NCBI GenBank assembly: GCA_037379345.1
Contig: CM074523.1
Location: forward strand, 12,716,551 to 12,780,550
DNA: 64,000 nucleotides
From: Perna viridis
Lineage: Eukaryota
Direction: 5' to 3'
In this document: positions 1,815 through 63,925 of the stretch, in pieces
Layout: every line of letters starts with the position of its first letter
How positions within the stretch are numbered: the stretch's first letter is position 1
Made by a program: the position numbers and the translations under genes
Notes under the pieces: generated by a model
The model's database searches: none
What the model saw: only the letters and a program-made list of their open reading frames with translations
Told to the model about the DNA's origin: nothing

Positions 1815-3067
1815 TCTGCAAATAAAACAAAAATTCTTAAAAATAGCAGTTAAAATTTTACAATTGATTCTATAAAACATATTTGATATATTTTCTATGT
1901 TTTCGAAAGACATTATATAATTACAGAAAAATATAAATTGTGTAGCTATTCCCATTATTTAGGCATTTCGTAAAATTCATTGATAGCCGATCTTGACAAA
2001 CAATACACTATTGTATTATTCAACATTTGGTGAGTACGGTTCTTGAATATGTTTCAGAATGCTTCAATATTTTATGAACACGGAATTGTCACATGAGATA
2101 TGGTGTTGTGGAAGAATCCATTATACGAAAGTATCATTTCATCGTTTGCTTAATTTCAACATCATGACAAGGTCGCCGAGGTGTATGTCTTAAGATGTTG
2201 AAATTAAACTACTAGAATTAATATTTTGCGATATTCTTCTTTTATTATAAAGCCTATTATCTCGGATCAAATCGAATCTTGATGAGCCAATTTAAGAATA
2301 AAACAGCTCTATAAATAGTCATATTTGATAAAAAATACTTTTATGTGACTTATTTTACAATTTGCCTGTTTTAGCAGTTTAAATTAGGTTTGACGAAATT
2401 GTACAAAACACTTTGAAAATAAATTCATTGAACCTGTAATTTACTGGAATCTTGAAAACGGGTTTGAATTTCTAACCAACAGAAATGCTTCTAACAAATG
2501 ATTCAATTAATCGCTTAAAACGCATATCTAAATCGGAAATGATGCACATTTCCTTTTTATTTTGCAAATAACAAATTCAAAGGCAAGAAGGAAACGCTGT
2601 CCCACTCCATACCACTCCTCATTTTCAAGCCATGGCTTTGAAATAGAAAGCATTCAAAGGACAGAAAACGATTCATGAATTTGGTTAAAAACTTTCTTAA
2701 AGTTATGAGGAAACATTGGACATTAAAGTCTGTAGACCATCATAAATAGCTAACGTAGTACTAATCTACTTCGTACCTCCTATTAAAGGTAAATTAACAA
2801 ACCACTATTTCTCCATTAGCTAGGGTAGTCGAATATATATGAACGGGTATTATGTCATGAGAGTAACGAGTTTCGATCGCAGTTTGTTCTTTCGTAAATC
2901 AAGAAATTACACGATAAACTAAAGTTAATGAGGAAACAGTACGAATATGAATGATACTGATAGCAAAAGATAAATCAAATTGAAACATATACTGCTTTTC
3001 ATATGTTCAAAATTAATTCGAAAACAATGAGTTTGTAGTCCTTCCGAAATTGACGACAATTGATGAA

Positions 3068-3945
3068 AGAGTAAGCAAGGAAACCAAGGTTATACCAGTA
3101 ATTTAAAGAATGTAATCCAGGAACAAAGACCAGACATGGAAAACAGACATAAACAACAAAGAACATAAAGTAATGAAATAATACATGCAAAGTAACAAAA
3201 GCAAATGAGCAACTCGGACTCCAATAAAAACTGGGAGAATAGACCAGGTGCACCGGTAGGGATAGCATCCCCTGCTTTTCTAGAAACATCAATCGAGTTG
3301 CTCATAAAAAAGTCAAGTCCGGGGTAGACGAAAGAGGAAAGAAAAACAATGACACATAGAACAAATCAGTTTTCATGGCGCAGATGGATACATGGTAACG
3401 ATCCACGAGTTCATGATGACGACCATAAAATTTCTGTGTTGATGAATTCAATCTTGTAGCAACATGACCTTGTTCCAGCAGCCTATTTGTTAGAACTCTA
3501 GTGCTATACAAAAAGTCTGCTTAGTTTCGGAAACTCTGGCATAACGTATGAGTTGTAATATATGACCACTACATACGCAGGTACAAAAGGAATGTTGCCA
3601 CAGATGAAAGGAAAGAATGAATGAAAAGTCATTACGTTTGTCGAAAAGTTTGGTCCATAGTTTTCCTTTACCATTGATTTCCGAGTGTAAGTCAAGATAT
3701 GAGACTGATTTAACAGTGTCTGTAGTAACCTTTATCTCAAGTTATTTGGGATAGATGCGATGTATCAAATCCCCAAAATTAGGATTGTCCAAAGAAAATA
3801 CATCTATATAGCGGAAAATCAGATTAAAGGATCTAGCTAAATATATTCTTTCTTCCGGATCAGACCAGCCATAACGCCAGCCTCATTAGAGTGAAGGAAT
3901 AGGTCAGCAAGTAGAGAAGCACAATTTGTTCCCATTGGATTGTGG
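3068..3945 (-). mobile_element. Penelope-like retroelement, 5'-truncated (RT palm/thumb plus 3' UTR)
   Basis: Frameshifted PMGTNCASLLADL, FRYID, FPFICGNIP..PAY and LLEQG..ATRL.SS.QKFYGRHHELVDRY motifs, then the shared 3' UTR. Confidence 0.9.
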
Positions 3946-13279: not shown

Positions 13280-14150
13280 GAAAAGAATTTTGATCGACCA
13301 CATATGTGTCCAGTGTAGTCCACGCGTTTTCCAACAAACGGTCGGTATTCCGGAACAAATTGTGCCCCTCTATTCCATAACATATTCCTTCACTCTTATC
13401 AATCTGACCGATCTAATCCAAAAAAAGGAACATCGTTTAGCCATATCCTATGATCTCAGTTTCCGCTGAACAGATCAAGTACTATCATTTAACAATCATA
13501 GTTTCGGAGATTTTATACATTGCATCTACCCCTAAAGAATTTGAGAAAGTGGATACTACATACACCTGTTGACCTACACTTATATATTGATGGTAAAGGA
13601 AAACTATGTGCAAAACTATACGAAAAACCCGATAACTTTCCATTTCGTACTGTCGACTTTCCTGTCATCCTCGGAAACACCCCTTCATCATCTGCGTATA
13701 GAGTTTATATATCACAACTCATACGTTATGCCAAAGCTTTCCGTATCTACGCGGAATAGTACCAAGCTAGACATCTTACATTCAGGCTTTTAAACTAAGA
13801 TTATGTTGGTACAAGTCATCACCACAGAAGATTTGTGGTCTTTATCATGAATACGTAGATCGTTACGGTGTATCCATCTGCACTGTGGGAACAGTTTTGT
13901 TCGACGTGCCATAGTTTTCCTATTCTCTTTCGTCTACCTGGGTGAGGACGCTTACCTTACCTGTGAATCTGGTCCATGCTCCCAGTTTTAGTAAGTTTCG
14001 AGTTGCTGATTTACTTTTGCTGCTTTGTACGTATTTTTTTTTGGTCATTTTATGTTATTTTATATGTGCGTCTGTTTTCACTTTCTGGACTTTGTCCCTT
14101 GATTACATTATCTTGATTTCCACTAGAATTTTGGTTCCTTTGATACCACT
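13280..14150 (+). mobile_element. Penelope-like retroelement, 5'-truncated
   Basis: RVFQQTVGIP and LYIDGKGKLCAKLYEKPDNFPFRTVDFP...AYRVYISQLIRYAKA, then the 3' UTR. Confidence 0.9.
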
Positions 14151-24479: not shown

Positions 24480-25540
24480 AGAGGATGAGGTTGGTAACGA
24501 ATCTCCTTTTAATTTTCTGCTCCATCCAATAAAAAGGATGGAAAATAAAGTCGTTAATTTAAATAATTCAATATTTTTTCTCAAAACAATTGGTAGGGGT
24601 TTACATATGAAAAGAGAGAAGGTTTACTTCGACAGATACTAAATGTGGCCTTGTCTTTGGATGCAGGTGTTTTAACACATGAAAGGGGGAAGGTTTACCC
24701 CGGATTTGAGGTGCATGTGTTTTTATTACACATAAAAAGGGAAAAGTTTACCCTGAATTCACTATCAAGTATTTTTATAACACGTAAAAGGGGGAAACTT
24801 TACCTGCGGACTTCGGCTGCAAGTGTTTTTACACATTAAAAAAGGAAAGGTTTACTTCCACACATTCTAAATGTGTGAAAATGTCATTTCCTGTTTGTTT
24901 GTCATTTATGATATAGTCGGTTTTTTTTGGGGGGGGGGAGGGGTGGGGTGGGAGAGAGTAATCAAGGGAACCAAGGTTATAGAAGTAATCAAAAGAATGT
25001 AATCCAGGGAGGGGGGAGGAGGAACACCTTTAATTTTCTAAAAATTTTGCTCACCCAGTTAAAAGGTGCAAAATAAATTATTAAATTACTCAAAACAATA
25101 GGTAGGGAGTTTACCAGTCATGCCAGTGTACACATAAAAAGGGGGATGTTTACAAAAAGAAGGGGAAGGTTTATTTCAACACGTTCTACGCTTTAACTTG
25201 TCTGGACAGTTTTGCACCCCCCCCCCCGAAAAATGGCGGATGTCGTTTAAGTAAGCAAACTAATTAACTTACAATACTCGTGTAACACATGTATATATGA
25301 TCCGGACAGTACGTCGACTGAGCATGTGCGAAAGCGTATTACAACAGACAGTCTTCGAATTGGGATATTTTTCCAAAAATTCGCGTTTCCCGTAGAAAAA
25401 AAAATGATTCTTTCAAAGACAAATTTAGGTAGTACAAAAAACTATATTTATCCCTCATATCACAAAAATATTCGACCTTGTATGGTTTCAGAGGAGTTGC
25501 GGCTCAAAGAAATCGGTCTCTTCCTTTAGTAGTATAGTAT
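24480..25540. repeat. Composite repeat with ~55-60 bp tandem subunits, possibly a non-autonomous Helitron/Helentron
   Basis: At least 7 copies of acacat.aaaagggg.aaggtttac. Block 24500-24640 recurs at 25020-25190, and a Penelope-like 3' terminus sits at 24954-25008. Confidence 0.55.
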
Positions 25541-26377: not shown

Positions 26378-26850
26378 GAGTAATTAAGGTAATCAAGATT
26401 CTGGTGAAAATTAAAAGAACGCAATCCAGGAAAAAAGGCCAGACAGGAGAAACAGACACAAATAACAAATAACATTATAACCAAAATAATATGTACAAAG
26501 AAACAAAAGTAACTGAGCAACTCGGACTCCCCGGAAGACTGGGAAAACTTTAGATGGACCAGGTGCACCTTTGAGGAAAACATCGTCTGCTTTCATAGAA
26601 ATACCCGCCGAGTTTTTCTCAGAAAAAGGTCAAGCTTGGAATATGACACGTTGAACAAAGTGGTAATCATGGTGCAGATTAATACACCGCAACGATCCAC
26701 AGTTTCACGATGACGACCATAAACATCATGTAGTATTGACTTCAATCTTGTTGCCACATATATGTAATGCTTTTCCAGAAGCCAAATTATACGAAAAGTC
26801 TAACGCGGTATAAAAAGTCTCCATAGTTATGCCAAGCTCTAGTATAAAGA
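26378..26850 (-). mobile_element. Penelope-like 3' fragment
   Basis: VATRLKS...YGRHRE remnant plus the complete family 3' UTR. Confidence 0.9.
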
Positions 26851-44401: not shown

Positions 44402-44600
44402 CTTACCCTACCGGTGCACCTGGTCCATGCTCCCAGTTTTTAGTGGAGTTCAAGTTGCTCATTTGCTTTTGTGACTTTGTATGTATGATTTTAGTTACTC
44501 TATGTTCTTTGTCGTGTATGTCTGTTTTCCATGTCTGGTCTTTGTCCCTGGGTTGCATTCTTTTGATGACCGCTATAACCTTGGTTCCGTTGATTACTCT
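44402..44600 (+). mobile_element. Penelope-like 3' UTR, well preserved
   Basis: cttaccctaccggtgcacctggtccatgctcccagtttttagtggag...ttgattactct. Confidence 0.9.
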
Positions 44601-49254: not shown

Positions 49255-50172
49255 ATAGTATTCAAGAGAACCAAGGTTCTAGCGGAAATCAAAAGATTGT
49301 AATCTAGGGACAAAGAACAAACATGGAAACATACATACGCAACAAAGAACATTAAGTAACTAAAATAATAATAAAAAGTAACAAAAGCCAATGAGCAACT
49401 CGGACTACACTAAAAACTGGGAGCATGAAGCAGGTAAGTAAGCGTCCTCTGCTTTTCTAGAAACACCCGTCGAGTTGCTCCGGGATAAATGAAAGAGGAA
49501 AGGAAAACTATGACACGATGAACAAATCAGTTTTCATAGTGCGGATGGATACACCGTAACGATCCACGTGTTCATGATGGCGACCATAAAACTTCTGTAA
49601 TGATGACTTTAACCTTGTAGCAAAATACAAATGTTCCAGAAGCCAAACTGTAAGAAGTCTAGGGCGATACAAAAAGTCTGCGTAGTTACGGCAAGCTCTG
49701 GCATAACGTATAAGTTGTGATATGAAAACTCTATACGCAGGTGCTGAAGGGATGTTGCCAAGATGAAAGGAAAATTGACAATTCTGAATGAAGTGTCAAC
49801 ACGTGTATCGTAAAGTTTGGTCAATAGTGATCCTTTACCACCGATCACTAAATGTAGGTCAAGATATGAGGCTGACTTCACAGTGACTGTAGTATACCTT
49901 ATCTCAAGTTCTTTGGGGTAGATGCGACGTATCAAGTCCCTGAAACTAGGATTGTTTAACGATAGTACGTCATCTATATAGCGGAAACTGAGATTAAAGG
50001 ATTTAGCTAAATTATGTTCTTTCTTTCGGATTTGATCAGCTATAAAGTCAACTTTATAACATAAGAGTGCAGGAATAGGCCAGCAAGTAGAGGAGCACAA
50101 TTTGTTCCCATTGGAATGCCGACCGTTTGTTGAATAATGCGTCCACCACACTGGAAAAATATGTTGTCGATT
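49255..50172 (-). mobile_element. Best-preserved Penelope-like (Naiad/Chlamys-type) retroelement fragment
   Basis: GIPMGTNCAPLL, then SFRYIDDVLSLNNP...IYPKELEI..TT..VKSASYLDL...TKLYD...SFRIVNFPF and KFYGRHHEHVDRY. The ORF ends after the thumb with no C-terminal GIY-YIG domain. Confidence 0.92.
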
Positions 50173-52160
50173 AAAACTGTTTTGAAAATATTTTCTTATG
50201 TATATTTGGAAGATGATTTGGAATTTATTTTTTTTTATTTTTTCTAAAATTCCACATGTTGTTTTGTTAAGTGAGATTTCACTATATAAACTCATTAGTA
50301 AAACATTCGGGTTTTATTATATATCTTATTATAGTAGCAATTGTCCATACGCCTCATAGTTTTGGTTTTATTTAAAGACTTGTTATTACTATGCAATGGA
50401 CTTGTCTATAAAACTGCGAATTCAAAATGTTATTTGCTACCATTGTAGATGCGTTTCTATCCAACAGAACTTGAAAAAAATAAAAATGTATCTTTTTTGA
50501 ATAATAGAAATTTATTTTGAAACGAGTTCGTTTTGAAATTTCAGACAATACAAACCAGGTCAAATCTTTGTTTTTTTATGTTTTTATTCTTGTGTTGTTT
50601 GCTTTGATTTTATTTTTGATTATTTTTGACTAATGAAGGACACATTTTTTAACGGATCATGTGACTTTTATTGCCTAGACGAAGAATCATTGTTCTAATC
50701 GAAATGTTCTTTGATTGCATTTTCATAAGCACAATCTTGTGAAATTAATCTCGAATTTCTAAATAAATTTACGACACTGTAACGACTTAATATAAATATG
50801 TGACTACCGTGGAGGTTATTTATCTCCCCTACATTTGCAATCAATTTCGCAGACGACTAAATTATCTTTTGTCTAGCATACTTATACATTCTGTAATTGA
50901 ATACTTCTTTTTTTTTCTATTTCATCGATGAAAATAACATTCCATGCAGTGGAGGTCGCTTTGGAAAAAAATAAACTATTCCGTTGACATTTTTTTCTAT
51001 TAACCTCTTGAGGAGTTGAAAGTATTCCTCATGTCATTTGTCCGTAAGTCAGACTTTTGTTTGCAAAATGATTATTACAGAACCAGTCAACAAGAAATTG
51101 AATGCACTGCATCGAACCATAAAATACTAGTCATGTTAAAGTTTAATGAAGTTTGAACTAAATTTGTGCAGTTTAGCCCCCTTTGATCTCCATATTTGGT
51201 TTCTCTAATCGGTTTATAAACTTGTTGGAATGTTTCATTATTTGCTTTGTTAGACCTAAACATTTGTTTTTCATGTTTATCATGGTGGTCCTAATAATGT
51301 GAAAAACATACGAGAAACATGTTTTCAGGGATTTTCAAAACAAATGTTGCAATTTTTCTGTGTAATAAGTGGAATGTATGTATGTATGTTTATTACCGCT
51401 GTTGGGATTTGAATGTAAATTATAGGATTATATCATAACAGTATTTTGCGACATTGTTTTTTTTTTCTTTTCTATATTTGTAATGAGCGATTGTCTCTGA
51501 AGAACACCGGAGTTTCATGGGGCAAAAACAATTATATTGATAGAACGAAGAACCCATTTGAGTAATCGGCAATCAATTTAAGGAGGTAGACCTAAGATAA
51601 GGGACAAACCTCTTAATATCAGTGATATGTGTGTATCATATTCAATTTCACCCAAGCTTATCAAACTTTCATTTCCAAAATGGCATCATTAATTGTTTTG
51701 GGTTAGACCGTAATGCCACGTCGTCAAACCAACTATTTTATGTCACAAAGATACAACACTTGTATCGGGAAAGTTCCCATTTCATGGTATATTGAAGTAT
51801 GATGTTTTTGAATGGGACGGATGGTGAAAATATTTTTTTTTAAACTAATTACTGATATGATAAAAATGTATCAAATTTAACTAGACAAAATATTTAAATG
51901 TGGAAGAATTCAAAACATACAATTCAATTTGATAATGTTAATATTTCATAAAGAAGAATGAAATGGGAATTCAAAGGGGGATGGGGATTCTTCTATGGAG
52001 AGTGGGAAAATCTCAGTGGGGAATGGGGGTGTTGTAAATTGAACGTTAATTCTACTCAAGAGCTGATACACCTCCTACTTCTATTATTATCTTGAACAAA
52101 TGTCTTATATCAATGACAATTGGTTGAATACAAAATGTACCAGTCTTATACATTGTAAAT

Positions 52161-55053: not shown

Positions 55054-55187
55054 TATAATTAACATATGTCTCAAAGTATAATTAACATATGTCTCAAAGC
55101 TACGGTTAACATATGTCTCAAAGCTACAGTTAACGTATGTCTCAAAGCTACAGTTAACATATGTCTCAAAGCTATAATTAACATATG
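55054..55187. repeat. 24-bp minisatellite, about 5.5 copies
   Basis: Unit ta(c/t)a(g/a)ttaacatatgtctcaaagc. Confidence 0.9.
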
Positions 55188-56814
55188 AGAATCAGACAAT
55201 AATCAAAAGAGACTGTCATATAATCATAATAATTAAAGATATAGAATTCAATTTGTGTAATTGCACTTTTTCGTGTTTTATACCTTCTGTTTGTCTGTCC
55301 GTCTGTCTGTCTGCCCTTAACGTATTATAACTGCAAATCTTCTGTTTGAGGTGAATCAGATCGTGTGTGTACCTGGTAAATAAACGAATAAAAACCAAAT
55401 ATATGAATTATCGTACAATTTTCATTTGATTACTATATAATTTTATATAATTCGTCCACTTTCTGTCTATCATATGTGGCACTTTTGATTGTGTATAATG
55501 TATATTTCATTTGTAATTCAATGTGTTTTCCAATATCGTTCTTCCTTTAGTAAATTAATGACATAAAACAACCAATCAGTTTATAACATTCACATACAAA
55601 ACATGATTGTGATTACAAGTATACAGTATAGTACGTTCTGCAACGTTTTTGTACTGTTCGTGGGGGGACATATATTAGCTCAAAAGAAATCACCTTTTCA
55701 TTAGTAAATCAAACACAAAACGCCTTGTGTACATGTCTTACATCATGACGATTTCGTTGCAAGATTGCTTGATATTGTAGAAACAAAGAATCTTAGTACA
55801 AATATTGCGTAATCGTCCTTTAAATAACATGCCATCTGTTTTTCCTGCATCTGTTTTGTTTGATTGTATGTAGATCACGACAAGACCTATAGATAATAAC
55901 AATTGTTAATTGATCGCCTCCACAATTATAATTTTAAGAACTTAGCTAATTAACTTTAATAATTATTGCCTTTCCCATATCATTTTTCAAGACTTTTGGC
56001 AATCTTAACAAAATTGTCTAATTTCTTATTTGTTTGTTTTACCCACAGCAGTGCATATGCTATTAATTTTTAAATACTCTATGTTAGTGCAAGTTTGTGT
56101 AAGAATCAGGCAAAATGAGACAAACAGATACATGGATGTCAAAACCCAAACGGTCTGAAAACATGATTTCATTCAAGGGAGCTCCCTTTATTTTTTTATG
56201 GATTTGCTCAGGACTTTTTTTTTCAACAAATGAGGTTTTTGACAGAGTTATCTTACCTTGAAATGTTCCTTTTTAGTGAAATTCATTGAAAATATAGTTC
56301 ACTTTTTGTTTTTCCCCGATTCTGATTTTTTTAAAATATCATGTTTCACCAACTGCCTGAATCTTACAGATACTGACACATAAATATATATCGTGGTATC
56401 TTGAATTCGGGAAATAATATGGACACTATTTTTTTACTTATAAATTCAACTACTAAACACTGTTCATTTTGGAAGAAGTCTAAAATTCTTTATAAACATG
56501 AAAATAAAACTCCAGATTCAGAGTAAGTGTGTTTCTAATATAATTGATTCATATTTGGTTTAGAAAGTGATCATTTGTTATTTATTGGGATAAGATTGAA
56601 TTCATGCCTTAAACCCCTTCAAAATTATTTGCACAATTTATATATGTATATATTTGAGAAGTCTATTGGGATGTGATCAAAACCATCTTACTAGTTAGTG
56701 CATTACTATATAAACATATTGCTTGCAAGACTTGGATCAACATAGCATGTTGATACAAGGATGTATTTCTATATATACCTAATATACACCCAAACTCTGA
56801 AATTGATGCGAGGG

Positions 56815-56866
56815 TGCAAATTTCCGATGCAAATTTGGTCGCTCCCTCAGCTTCATTTGAACCCGT
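56815..56866 (-). mobile_element. B-box and downstream remnant of the tRNA-derived element
   Basis: Reverse strand gggttcaaat...gagggagcgaccaaatttgcatcggaaatttg matches 30468-30517. Confidence 0.7.
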
Positions 56867-57200
56867 TTTCTGCTCAATATATATATATATTTCTGAACAA
56901 AAAACAGAAGAAGTTAATGTATTTAATATCCTAAAAAAAGTTTGTCTAGCAAAATAATTATAGTTAAATATAAAATACTACAGAGAATAGATAACCGTTT
57001 AGCCTATGATACCATATAACTTGAATATATCATTCACATATCAGATTTTTTGTAAAGATTAAGATATATGTTTTATGCTTATAAGTTTCCCTATAACGTA
57101 GAAGCACTAATAACTATAGGGCTCATAGAGAACATACTGTAGCTATATGAAGATTGTAAACAGCAAAATGCAATACGGTGTTATGATGTGAACAAAAAGT

Positions 57201-59115
57201 CCAACGCTCTAGATCATTCGACCAACTAGGCTATAGACATCCAACGCTCTAGATCATTTGATCAACTAGGCTATAGACATCCAATGCTCTAGATCATTCG
57301 ACCAACTAGGCTATAGACATCCAACGCTCTAGATCATTTGATCAACTAGGCTATAGACATCCAACGCTCTAGATCATTCGACCAACTAGGCTATAGACAT
57401 CCAACGCTCTAGATCATTCGACCAACTAGGCTATAGACATCCAATGCTCTAGATCATTCGACCAACTAGGCTATAGACATCCAACGCTCTAGATCATTCG
57501 ACCAACTAGGCTATAGACATCCAACGCTCTAGATCATTCGACCAACTAGGCTATAGACATCCAACGCTCTAGATCATTTGATCAACTAGGCTATAGACAT
57601 CCAACGCTCTAGATCATTCGACCAACTAGGCTATAGACATCCAACGCTCTAGATCATTCGACCAACTAGGCTATAGACATCCAACGCTCTAGATCATTCG
57701 ACCAACTAGGCTATAGACATCCAACGCTCTAGATCATTCGACCAACTAGGCTATAGACATCCAACGCTCTAGATCATTCGACCAACTAGGCTATAGACAT
57801 CCAACGCTCTAGATCATTCGACCAACTAGGCTATAGACATCCAACGCTCTAGATCATTCGACCAACTAGGCTATAGACATCCAACGCTCTAGATCATTCG
57901 ACCAACTAGGCTATAGACATCCAACGCTCTAGATCATTCGACCAACTAGGCTATAGACATCCAATGCTCTAGATCATTCGACCAACTAGGCTATAGACAT
58001 CCAACGCTCTAGATCATTTGACCAACTAGGCTATAGACATCCAACGCTCTAGATCATTTGATCAACTAGGCTATAGACATCCAACGCTCTAGATCATTCG
58101 ACCAACTAGGCTATAGACATCCAACGCTCTAGATCATTCGACCAACTAGGCTATAGACATCCAACGCTCTAGATCATTCGACCAACTAGGCTATAGACAT
58201 CCAACGCTCTAGATCATTTGATCAACTAGGCTATAGACATCCAACGCTCTAGATCATTCGACCAACTAGGCTATAGACATCCAACGCTCTAGATCATTCG
58301 ACCAACTAGGCTATAGACATCCAATGCTCTAGATCATTCGACCAACTAGGCTATAGACATCCAACGCTCTAGATCATTCGACCAACTAGGCTATAGACAT
58401 CCAACGCTCTAGATCATTCGACCAACTAGGCTATAGACATCCAACGCTCTAGATCATTTGATCAACTAGGCTATAGACATCCAACGCTCTAGATCATTCG
58501 ACCAACTAGGCTATAGACATCCAACGCTCTAGATCATTCGACCAACTAGGCTATAGACATCCAACGCTCTAGATCATTCGACCAACTAGGCTATAGACAT
58601 CCAACGCTCTAGATCATTCGACCAACTAGGCTATAGACATCCAACGCTCTAGATCATTCGACCAACTAGGCTATAGACATCCAACGCTCTAGATCATTCG
58701 ACCAACTAGGCTATAGACATCCAACGCTCTAGATCATTCGACCAACTAGGCTATAGACATCCAACGCTCTAGATCATTCGACCAACTAGGCTATAGACAT
58801 CCAACGCTCTAGATCATTTGACCAACTAGGCTATAGACATCCAACGCTCTAGATCATTTGATCAACTAGGCTATAGACATCCAACGCTCTAGATCATTCG
58901 ACCAACTAGGCTATAGACATCCAACGCTCTAGATCATTCGACCAACTAGGCTATAGACATCCAACGCTCTAGATCATTCGACCAACTAGGCTATAGACAT
59001 CCAACGCTCTAGATCATTCGACCAACTAGGCTATAGACATCCAACGCTCTAGATCATTCGACCAACTAGGCTATAGACATCCAACGCTCTAGATCATTTG
59101 ATCAACTAGGCTATA
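57201..59115. repeat. 40-bp minisatellite, about 48 head-to-tail copies
   Basis: Unit ccaacgctctagatcattcgaccaactaggctatagacat with three C>T variant positions and no spacers. Confidence 0.98.
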
Positions 59116-60221
59116 TAAAATATAATGATAAACTAAACTAAGACTGTTAGTGTGGTTTCTCACAGATACTGATTTAGAAATAAAAAAAAAGATCGTTCGT
59201 TTTTTCTTACACGCATGAACCACTTCCTGTCTAATTTGTTTAATTTTGACTGTCATTAAAGACATTCTATTACGCAGAAAATAATACCATGATATTTTTC
59301 CATACTACTTTACAGATTTAAAGGGCACAAATATGTATCTCTTAAAAAAAACAACGTTGTCAATGAACTAGTCCATTACTTTTTTAAGTTACATTGAGTC
59401 TAGGAAACTTGTCTATACGTTTTTTTTTTTTATTATTTCCTGACACTTCTTACTATAATCACTATGCCATTGATTTGAATAACAGTATGATATTACATTC
59501 GCATGTACAATTATTTAACATGGCAGTACACCAAAACGTTAAGTAGATTAACAAAACAAGCATACACCTTGGTTTTACCATTTACTATCTAATACTATCA
59601 GGGTAAAATAAATATTCAATTTATAATTCCAGGAATAACGAGATGATTGTAGTAACAATATTACCGCCATTATACCTCTCGGTCATATTATAAATAATTT
59701 ATACCTTAGCAGCTTTTAAATGGCCGAGTAAGAGTTTATGACGGCTTGCTCTGTTGATTATAGAATTCAAGGAAAAATTGACGATTGAATTTGTATTGAA
59801 TATACTAGATGTTGCGTTCCGAACATTAATAGTTGGTTATGAATTTAGTATCGCGTTTCAATTTATCTGGGCTTTTTATATGTAGTATTGTATTGTTCTT
59901 TTTTCCGCAGTGAACTTGAATAGGATGCCTCAATAAATGCTGCGGTGATAAAGGTTTAATTGATGTTAGTGAAATACTTTAATTGATGAAATGCAATGTT
60001 AGGAGTGTGTTGATTGTTTTTCTAAGGAGTTGTTCAACAAGTTTTAAAAATATAAATAAACGATTAAGTGCTTTAAACTTTTTTTTGGTTTATTTAATGA
60101 AAAAAAAGTTTTTCGCTTTTTTGCGGTATTTGTGTAGACTAAATCCGGGATGTTAAAAAACGGGTAGACAAGTTCAGAAATTATATTCAACTTAAACATA
60201 GTAAGACAATAGTCCAAAAGT

Positions 60222-61474: not shown

Positions 61475-61955
61475 CTCGGCGGGTGTTTCTGTAAACGGAG
61501 AGGATGTTACCGGTGCAACTGGTCCATGCTCCCAATGTTTTAGGTGAACCAATGTGCAGGAAAACACACTAAACTAATATCGATGTTCGATTTATTAGCA
61601 TGTACTTATTTAACGATAGTCATTTCTGTATTCGTCATCATGACCTCGTGGATTGTTAGTGTATATCCATCTGCTCCATGAAAACTGATTTGTTTAAATG
61701 GTCATAGTTTTCCTTTCCTCTTTCGTCTACCCTGAACTTGACTTTTATGAGCATCTCAGGGTACTTTTAGAAAAGCAGAGGACACTTACTTTACCGGTGC
61801 ACCTGGTCCATACTCCCAGTTTTAGTGGCATCCGAGTTGCTGATTTACTTTTTGTTACTTTGTATGTATTATTTTGGCAATTTCATGTTCTTTGTTGTGT
61901 ATGATAGTTTTTCCAAGTCTGGTATTTGTCTCAGGGTTGCATCCTTTTGATTCTT
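61475..61955 (+). mobile_element. Two adjacent Penelope-like 3' fragments
   Basis: Partial UTR at 61475-61545, then HHDLVD remnant plus UTR at 61630-61955. Confidence 0.85.
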
Positions 61956-62764: not shown

Positions 62765-63724
62765 GTAAAATATTTAAATGTGAGGAAAATGATACTAAAT
62801 TGCATTATTTCATTGTATAGACCTCATAATGACGCTACAATTTTACACCATTTAAAAAAACTGCTGAGAATTGTAAATTTTGTCGTTTTGTTTTTCAGAC
62901 ATTATTACATCTAGAAAAAAAACATGTCCAAACTCAAGAAACAACTTCATATTTGGACATATATTAAACTATGTAATAATGAGTATATTTACTAAATATG
63001 TCATATTGAAGTTGTTTCTTTGTTGTGGACGACATTTCCTAGTCAAAAATATGACCCGATATTGACCAAAAAGTACGAAATTTTACAGAATATCTGAATG
63101 TTGGAATATTGGTAAACGTAAAGCTATCTTTCTGTCAATTCAATGCAAAAAATTATCAGTAATTTTTTATGTTGTTTCATTTCTGATGAATTCAAGTCTG
63201 CAATGTCACAATTAAATCATTCAACAATTTATGATTAATTTTCAGTTGTATTTTAGGGCTAATAAGACACGTTATCGTCAATTCTCTTTTGGTGGGTTTT
63301 TGACATGAATCAGCTCCTGTCTGATTGTTGTTAATACTGCCTCTTAAGCTTTCTTGAGCTTTTACAGTAGCACTCAAATTTGTAGTTTATAAATTGTCTT
63401 TGTACCATTAGCAAGTAATTAGTGCTATCAATAAAATGCGATAATCTAATTGGATGATCGGCTTTACACATGATGGTTCATGAGCCGATGAAACGCCTCA
63501 TAATAATATGTATAGGTCACGCCCACAAGTACACATGAACAGAGTGGTCTACTTTAACAGATCACCTTGTATTGCCTTTTTTTCTTTGTATACTTTAAAT
63601 AAAACGGATGTAGAATTTTAGAAACATGAAATTAATCAAAATAATTGAATATTTTGACCAATCGAAAAGAAAAAGTTTGTTTTCGTGTGCGAGCAGATTC
63701 TGCTGTAAATGAGTTAAAGCAAGA

Positions 63725-63925
63725 AAAGCGTAACCAAGGCAACCACAATTCTATCGGTAATAAGAAAAAAACGTAAACCAGGGACAAATACAAGGCATGG
63801 AAAACAGAAAAACACCTGAAAGAACATAACGAAATTAAAATAATACATCCAACGTAACAAAAATAAATGCGAAATTCGACTCCACTAAAAACTTAGAGCA
63901 GGTGCACCGGTAGGGTAAGCGTCCA
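63725..63925 (-). mobile_element. Penelope-like 3' UTR fragment
   Basis: gactccactaaaaact...caggtgcaccggtagggtaagcgtcc. Confidence 0.85.

Follow-up and report, generated by a model that had tools for sequence, protein, structure and literature searches.

The minisatellite at positions 57200-59115 of the window (the whole 64,000-nt stretch of Perna viridis DNA analysed here) derives, almost beyond doubt, from the A-box head of a tRNA-derived element, and its growth was very probably recent and took place at the DNA level. With 48 copies it is the longest of the 17 head-to-tail duplications of this head that we found. Judging from these sequences, we think it probable that the array was seeded when a reverse transcriptase restarted in the head during insertion of an element copy, that growth at the DNA level followed, and that the array has no function. 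The locus is laid out as follows.

57200..59115, minus strand: minisatellite of 48 units of 40 bp (tandem-repeat detection and subfamily alignment).
59116..59124, minus strand: parent sequence upstream of the first head (ATA/T-run junction), the 5' end of the host copy (alignment).
57197..57199, minus strand: 3 nt more of the last head (parent positions 37-39), shared with the poly(A) tail of the LINE.
56881..57198, plus strand: 5'-truncated 3' end of an L1/Tx1-type LINE, with the end of ORF2, the 3' UTR and poly(A) at 57194-57198.
56877..56889, no strand: (TA)n run where the LINE fragment meets the B-box piece.
56639..56875, minus strand: body of the host copy, positions 68-309 of the 465-bp subfamily (alignment).
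56853..56863, minus strand: degenerate B box with three mismatches to the parent B box, inside 56639-56875.

Tandem-repeat detection in the window put the period of the array at 40, with 47.9 copies and 97% matches, in agreement with the first-pass annotation, which had described a minisatellite of about 1.9 kb and 48 copies built from the A-box head of a tRNA-derived element. Read on the minus strand, the unit consists of positions 1-36 of the head (A box) of a 465-bp subfamily of this element followed by four nucleotides, TGTC; 32 of the 36 head nucleotides equal the subfamily consensus, and one mismatch lies at a family-variable site. The majority unit carries three fixed changes relative to the parent consensus, one of them in the GG of the A box. 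In local alignment the unit scored 52 against the 465-bp subfamily and 42 against its 410-bp sister, as compared to maxima of 25 and 23 among dinucleotide shuffles, none of 1000 of which reached the observed score for either subfamily. The derivation from a head thus stands, and the reverse complement of the unit does match heads at 30333-30356 and 30403-30433, as had been noted; the 30.4-kb copy that these belong to was mistaken for the parent, since it is of the lower-scoring 410-bp subfamily. It was the five single heads closest to the array that led to the 465-bp subfamily (78% identical to the 410-bp one over aligned bases), which is, on sequence grounds, the parent of the array.

Each unit holds A-box-like words in two registers: at positions 3-14 it agrees perfectly with a 12-nt A-box pattern, and overlapping this word, at positions 12-22, lies a changed copy of the A box of the parent. 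Two overlapping A-box-like words per head, judged by the same consensus, are also present in both parent consensus sequences. As for the four additional nucleotides, GA followed by TGTC occurs at parent positions 61-66, within a stretch missing from the host copy (a coincidence with a chance of about 3%), so the filler TGTC may have been templated from parent positions 63-66 via a 2-nt match.

The units are strikingly uniform. There are four types, represented by 34, 7, 4 and 2 units, plus one terminal unit (48 in total), which differ at three polymorphic sites, and the mean pairwise identity is 98.2%. Among the 47 full units there is not one singleton mutation, as compared to about 320 expected had they decayed like the host body, and a 15-unit block with three variant units is repeated 22 units on, a match reached by 13 of 10000 shuffles. 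Taken together, the lack of singletons, the block duplication and the fixed changes argue that insertion did not itself produce the 48 copies. The phrase "caught at birth" in the first-pass annotation consequently applies only loosely, as the host copy is old (83% identical to consensus) and the array grew long after that copy was inserted. When three array units were searched in the 723-Mb genome, at least 28 matches were returned, at least 23 inside the array and at least five elsewhere, each to one isolated head of 33-41 bp; the matches listed include no second array of the 40-bp unit. The array is interstitial, lying at 12.8 Mb on a 36.6-Mb contig with unique flanks in a 46-contig assembly.

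The edges of the array place it inside a copy of its own parent. At the right it runs on for 9 nt into parent sequence, to 59124, as the annotation had stated. At the left, where "ggactttt" had been read as parent sequence, only the 3 nt at 57197-57199 are parental and the T-run is mostly the poly(A) tail of a LINE. A B-box remnant in the same orientation had also been seen, and it proves to sit at 56853-56863 in a piece of parent body with 192 of 232 aligned bases identical to the consensus, terminating at an internal TATA; the mismatches of this B box include its last conserved C. Parent positions 40-67 (28 bp) are absent at the LINE insertion. Because head (positions 1-39) and body (68-309) are collinear, the simplest history is that one old copy was split by the LINE with the loss of 28 bp, and the proposal that the array grew in place within an element copy holds.

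The LINE fragment, about 80% identical to its relatives, sits within the host copy and parts its A boxes from its B box, so that the B box stands 350 bp from the nearest A box at the array as compared to 57 in the parent. The distance of about 330 bp given in the first-pass annotation is the truncated L1-type insertion. The stretch of about 320 bp concerned is repeated in the genome (50 matches) and terminates in poly(A). The LINE that it comes from encodes a zinc-knuckle ORF1, an AP endonuclease, a reverse transcriptase and a zf-RVT domain, of which the window piece retains the end of ORF2. That this spacer is unique DNA, or belongs to the parent, is ruled out, as it is the 3' end of a LINE; insertion of the parent into a longer LINE is likewise ruled out, as the LINE does not resume left of the B-box piece. 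A Pfam scan for a host gene gave no hits in the 29 frames scanned of the 70 in the window of at least 75 aa.

The sister subfamily is represented in the window by the following two features.

30403..31014, plus strand: copy of the 410-bp subfamily, 1.5 units head to tail, with heads at 30403 and 30804.
30333..30404, minus strand: 72-bp piece in inverted orientation, made up of tail, junction and the start of a head, at the 5' end of the 30403 copy.

Directly after this copy comes (TG)n(TA)n at 31021-31081. A search with the 30.4-kb element gave 923 first-look candidates, 40 of which were scored; the copies have sequence in common ahead of the tRNA-like head and are joined head to tail at intervals of about 410 bp. 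Genome-wide, a 19-nt pattern spanning the end of the tail finds 2466 exact matches and none when read backwards, and there are at least 2466 junction copies. An alignment of 11 junction stretches, three of whose rows lack the junction, does not enter the counts given here. From a sample of 62 loci (three duplicates dropped) we assembled 70 composite insertions, half of which (35) are longer than one unit, while 30 carry both orientations and 17 mix both subfamilies. The mixed insertions give the impression of an enzyme that switched to another RNA midway through a single insertion. Subfamily switches, some within shared sequence, are seen for instance at L062, L067, L068, L069, L077, L078 and L088, among others. 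At all 55 assignable unit junctions (65 were examined and 10 were unassignable) tail and head are of the same subfamily. TA runs accompany 56 of 90 outer 3' ends versus 12 of 50 outer 5' ends, in a test window that takes in 6 element nucleotides, often TATA, and the 3' ends tend to fall at the same few TATA sites inside the element.

The parent had been called a SINE. A canonical SINE starts at its head and has a single fixed tail; in this element the sequence upstream of the head is conserved, there are several 3' end sites, and half of the composite insertions exceed one unit. We conclude from its sequence that the parent is a circularly permuted, tandem, (TA)n-associated tRNA-derived element and not a plain SINE. 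In the parent the A and B boxes lie at tRNA-like spacing (gap 57). ARAGORN found no tRNA gene in the window; Rfam found no tRNA or other family there, with no hits at gathering score on the window, four chance-level hits on six loci and no ribozyme. No exact hammerhead core was present on the four strands searched, and one candidate with a single mismatch lacked a second stem. Resemblances to HDV, twister and pistol ribozymes, judged by eye against their motifs, were dropped as they are not conserved between the subfamilies.

The consensus RNAs of the 410- and 465-bp subfamilies fold more stably than 30 shuffles (z of -5.5 and -5.7; antisense -3.8 and -2.5), and the predicted fold pairs head with tail, that is, the 5' and 3' ends. 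Among 62 pairs shared between the subfamilies there are three double-sided and four one-sided changes. A perfect short AT-rich hairpin occupies the unit junction. Inside the 410-bp subfamily, at position 149, stand five consecutive T, at which Pol III might stop early. In run X11, which bears a second organism label, 0.37 of the sampled 410-bp subfamily words (window 30330-31015) were present, and the element may accordingly be common to a relative.

A search of the genome for other arrays had been suggested by the first-pass annotation; none of this unit emerged among the matches listed, and what did emerge were 16 other, independent head duplications of the element. A pattern of two heads in tandem with a period of 28-58 matched 10 times at eight loci besides the array, and with a period of 59-89 it matched 23 times, adding eight events once three pairs with identical flanks were merged. 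This makes 17 head-to-tail duplications including the array; the other 16 have periods of 28-83 bp and 2-24 copies. Since these pattern searches take exact matches only, older duplications escape and the counts are lower bounds. At periods of 28-58, to which the control motifs are confined, a mid-body 16-mer was duplicated at two loci and a B-box 16-mer at none, as compared to eight loci and the array for the head. The excess has P of about 0.001 with the array and 0.003 without it, the denominators (53, 48 and 64 occurrences of the head, mid-body and B-box motifs) coming from the 62-locus sample, which is biased.

The duplications share one breakpoint. In 16 of the 17 the repeat restarts at most 9 nt upstream of the TAGCC of the head, where uniform breakpoints would lead one to expect 5.5 (P 4e-8), and the point of re-entry varies across events from 24 to about 78. 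The exception is L113, which restarts 29 nt upstream, in the tail, and is the only one of the 17 to include tail sequence. At L111 (G000:C2:22.15 Mb, about 1370-1620) five heads form a nested ladder with periods of 49, 49, 62 and 83, with extra A/TA letters at each joint and an inverted piece adjoining the ladder; the periods of the ladder at L117 are 53, 53 and 62. In both ladders the re-entry points differ and the restart is fixed. Other head minisatellites of the 410-bp subfamily are found at L193 2481-4100 (G000:C2:8.376 Mb; 24 units of 64-71 bp), L195 (C9:40.15 Mb; 11 of 54 bp) and L196 (C13:6.546 Mb; 5 of 67 bp). In addition, 10 of 29 copies of the sister subfamily (two from one locus) have their 5' end at the head, versus 16% expected (P 0.012).

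From one fixed restart, varied re-entry and nested ladders we infer that the RNA has its 5' end at the head start and that the enzyme, once it has run off this end, sometimes re-primes inside the head. The predicted 5' end of a Pol III transcript would coincide with the head start, immediately behind a T-run at the unit junction that could terminate the preceding transcript. The element RNA would fold with its two ends paired. An enzyme running off the 5' end might either stop or continue into the tail, the latter giving permuted tandems. Occasionally it might instead re-prime 28-83 nt inside the head, using a short TA-type microhomology or added bases, and so produce dimers and ladders; a head dimer would then be a substrate for ordinary minisatellite growth by slippage or unequal exchange. 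The reverse transcriptase of R2 does add extra bases on running off its RNA, according to two reports (PMC3774820; PMC2718515). By the anatomy of the insertions the mobilising enzyme would be Penelope-like. We tentatively go one step further and suggest that a tRNA-headed, ribozyme-less Pol III RNA might serve as template for a Penelope-type, telomerase-related reverse transcriptase prone to stuttering at the 5' end, and that these stutters would found minisatellites.

Several observations count against the restart seed. The repeats restart at the base of the AT-rich DNA hairpin, in many cases right beside (TA)n, which could favour breaks at the DNA level; homogenisation has erased the array's own seed, and the array abuts a LINE insertion. 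To these come the exception L113, the five-T run inside the 410-bp subfamily, and the RNA and Naiad results given below. Because of the hairpin at the restart site, a seed formed purely at the DNA level keeps some plausibility, although we regard it as rather unlikely. The AT-rich junction palindrome or the TA runs might stall or break the DNA, and repair by microhomology would then duplicate the neighbouring sequence. The perfect hairpin foot at the restart point would suit such a process, as would microhomologies of 1-5 nt at several joints, the duplication across the junction at L113 and the clear DNA-level homogenisation of the large arrays (the window array, L193 and L195). The 3' UTR of the neighbouring LINE has also made 59-bp arrays at two loci, and unequal recombination has been proposed as the seed of reptile SINE satellites (PMC10702118). 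The LINE 3' UTR minisatellites are L109 (G000:C4:2164300-2165700), with about 13 units, and L110 (G000:C3:59255000-59256200), with about eight. However, five of the events (L029, L117, L155, L193 and L197) are 5'-truncated at the head and so have no upstream hairpin arm, the L111 ladder with its varied re-entry and added bases fits repeated restarts in one event, and the duplications run only into the head, tail being included in just the one case of 17.

Alternatively, the LINE insertion itself might have seeded the array, if repair at the poly(A) joint deleted positions 40-67, duplicated the adjacent head and patched in TGTC. The array does end at most 3 nt from the poly(A) tail, and the GA+TGTC match falls in the missing stretch. 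We nevertheless consider this improbable, since in the 16 other events the last head continues into element body or flank and not into a LINE tail, and since L117 and L196 re-enter near the same GATGTC stretch without any LINE.

It is still less probable that the array is functional, that is, that the 48 A boxes, with a B box downstream of them, bind TFIIIC or yield small RNAs, as the first-pass annotation had wondered. Each unit does offer a perfect match to the A-box pattern at positions 3-14. The B box dominates TFIIIC binding, and here that box has three mismatches and stands 350 bp away instead of 57. The units, moreover, share three fixed changes, one of them in the A-box GG, the array is young and confined to a single locus, and Rfam and tRNA searches of the window gave no match. 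In favour, yeast SNR6 works although its boxes lie 202 bp apart (PMC9136082). Most likely the array is neutral, and it could serve as a length-polymorphic marker. That an assembler inflated or invented the array is hardly credible: the units are 98% alike and the array structure is known here from assembly sequence alone, yet four unit types stand in non-random order with a duplicated block, the flanks are unique on a 36.6-Mb contig of a 46-contig assembly, and 16 sister events are of like type.

To return to the restart seed, the enzyme that it would call for was sought among Penelope-like elements. The most abundant family here is a Naiad, with an 870-aa frame on C12 that has an N-terminal GIY-YIG-like motif, CxC and DKA (motifs as given in PMC8557442) and a Pfam reverse transcriptase match below cut-off; there are 43003 first-look candidates genome-wide. 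Its candidacy as partner of the element is not supported: the two have no DNA in common and none of 27 Naiad 3' ends lies at (TA)n. A search with the 110 N-terminal residues returned only that Naiad family. Naiad 3' fragments occur in the window at 3066-3942, 13296-14144, 26378-26847, 44402-44599, 49257-50233, 61632-61952 and 63724-63924, and the family is also represented at L198 2618-5230. Matches to the Naiad endonuclease are regularly spaced in two places (four at about 5.1 kb spacing at G000:C6:47.136-47.152 Mb; eight, mostly at 3.4 kb spacing, at C3:46.033-46.061 Mb), which would represent long tandem arrays containing Naiad.

We also looked for RNA of the element in two raw runs, of which 19% and 24% were read and which placed 2688 and 3275 reads on a copy of the 410-bp subfamily. 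The reads lie in both orientations and 68% and 61% of them run on into unlike sequence, with the lowest depth over junction and head. They represent passive transcription and bear no sign of the inferred discrete RNA; shared 5' or 3' ends were absent from both runs on this copy, though such libraries may lose an RNA of this kind. Reads do cross the permuted wrap of the element, which circular RNA and genomic tandems would both predict. At L006 1420-1950, run X22 has linked variants in one read orientation only (e.g., 77/433 versus 0/148), which suggests one strongly transcribed copy in the sense of the element, provided that the library is of the usual stranded kind.

Satellites derived from SINEs are already known (PMC10702118), and the new part here would be the 5'-anchored series of seeds. 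The sSats of squamate reptiles described there resemble our array in that tandem units come from part of a tRNA-derived element, the terminal unit continues into the element, and short, variable loci are numerous while long, homogeneous ones are few; a variant from a gecko corresponds to the tRNA portion. In contrast, the squamate units come from many parts of the SINE and have spread to many, subtelomeric loci, whereas here the units are each confined to a single locus, measure 28-83 bp, and start in 16 of 17 cases at the 5' end of the head. The window array thus has the homology of unit to element, the terminal continuation and the higher identity of units (98.2% versus 83% for the body) that mark a SINE-derived satellite; dispersal of the unit to many or subtelomeric loci is missing, as it is interstitial at one locus.

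Further minisatellites from transposable elements include Alu minisatellites and mouse B1 VNTRs, and the salamander Hy/Pol III and frog Xenopus satellite 1 repeats come from tRNA-related regions (PMC9659126); the limpet PcH-Sat comes from the Nin-SINE (PMC11121367). These share a SINE-like birth with our array, some of them from the tRNA-related region, and in the available parts of these two sources neither a 5'-anchored seed series nor nested ladders are described.

The parent has its own analogues. Sm-alpha SINE-like elements and non-LTR retrozymes (PMC6765202, PMC7229834) are, like it, tandems of the 150-450-bp class with highly self-paired RNA; their internal Pol III promoter needs tandem context, and they coexist with Penelope-like elements. 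They differ in carrying a hammerhead ribozyme, whereas the parent has neither an exact core nor an Rfam ribozyme. Naiad and Chlamys Penelope-like elements and their non-autonomous partners (PMC8557442, PMC11167929) share with the parent partial tandems, inverted 5' pieces, a (TA)n bias and the lack of a hammerhead, and their reverse transcription starts inside the RNA; unlike them, the parent is headed by a tRNA-type sequence and lacks a coding frame. The 3' ends of the parent lie at internal TATA beside TA runs, and an anole element primes without homology (PMC11167929). Naiads have a reported (TA)n bias (PMC8557442), whereas the abundant Naiad here lacks TA at its 3' ends. In the part of a survey of mollusc SINEs that we could draw on (PMC4758252), nothing resembles the permuted form of the parent. 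Within our literature coverage, which was partial with Repbase outside it, no paper dealt with SINE 5'-end minisatellites seeded by enzyme restarts, or with tRNA-headed passengers of Penelope-like elements. Penelope-type enzymes may carry the parent as a SINE-like passenger.

The first duplication of a minisatellite is usually ascribed to chance recombination. If the restart seed is correct, the birth of minisatellites would instead be programmed by a step of retrotransposition, and this genome would hold the resulting series from 2 to 48 copies. In any case one element family offers 17 independent births here that share a breakpoint and vary in size, which opens the seed step to counting. Two small minisatellites lie elsewhere in the window, one of 5.4 copies of 24 bp at 55059-55187 and one of 3.5 copies of 52 bp at 24673-24855.
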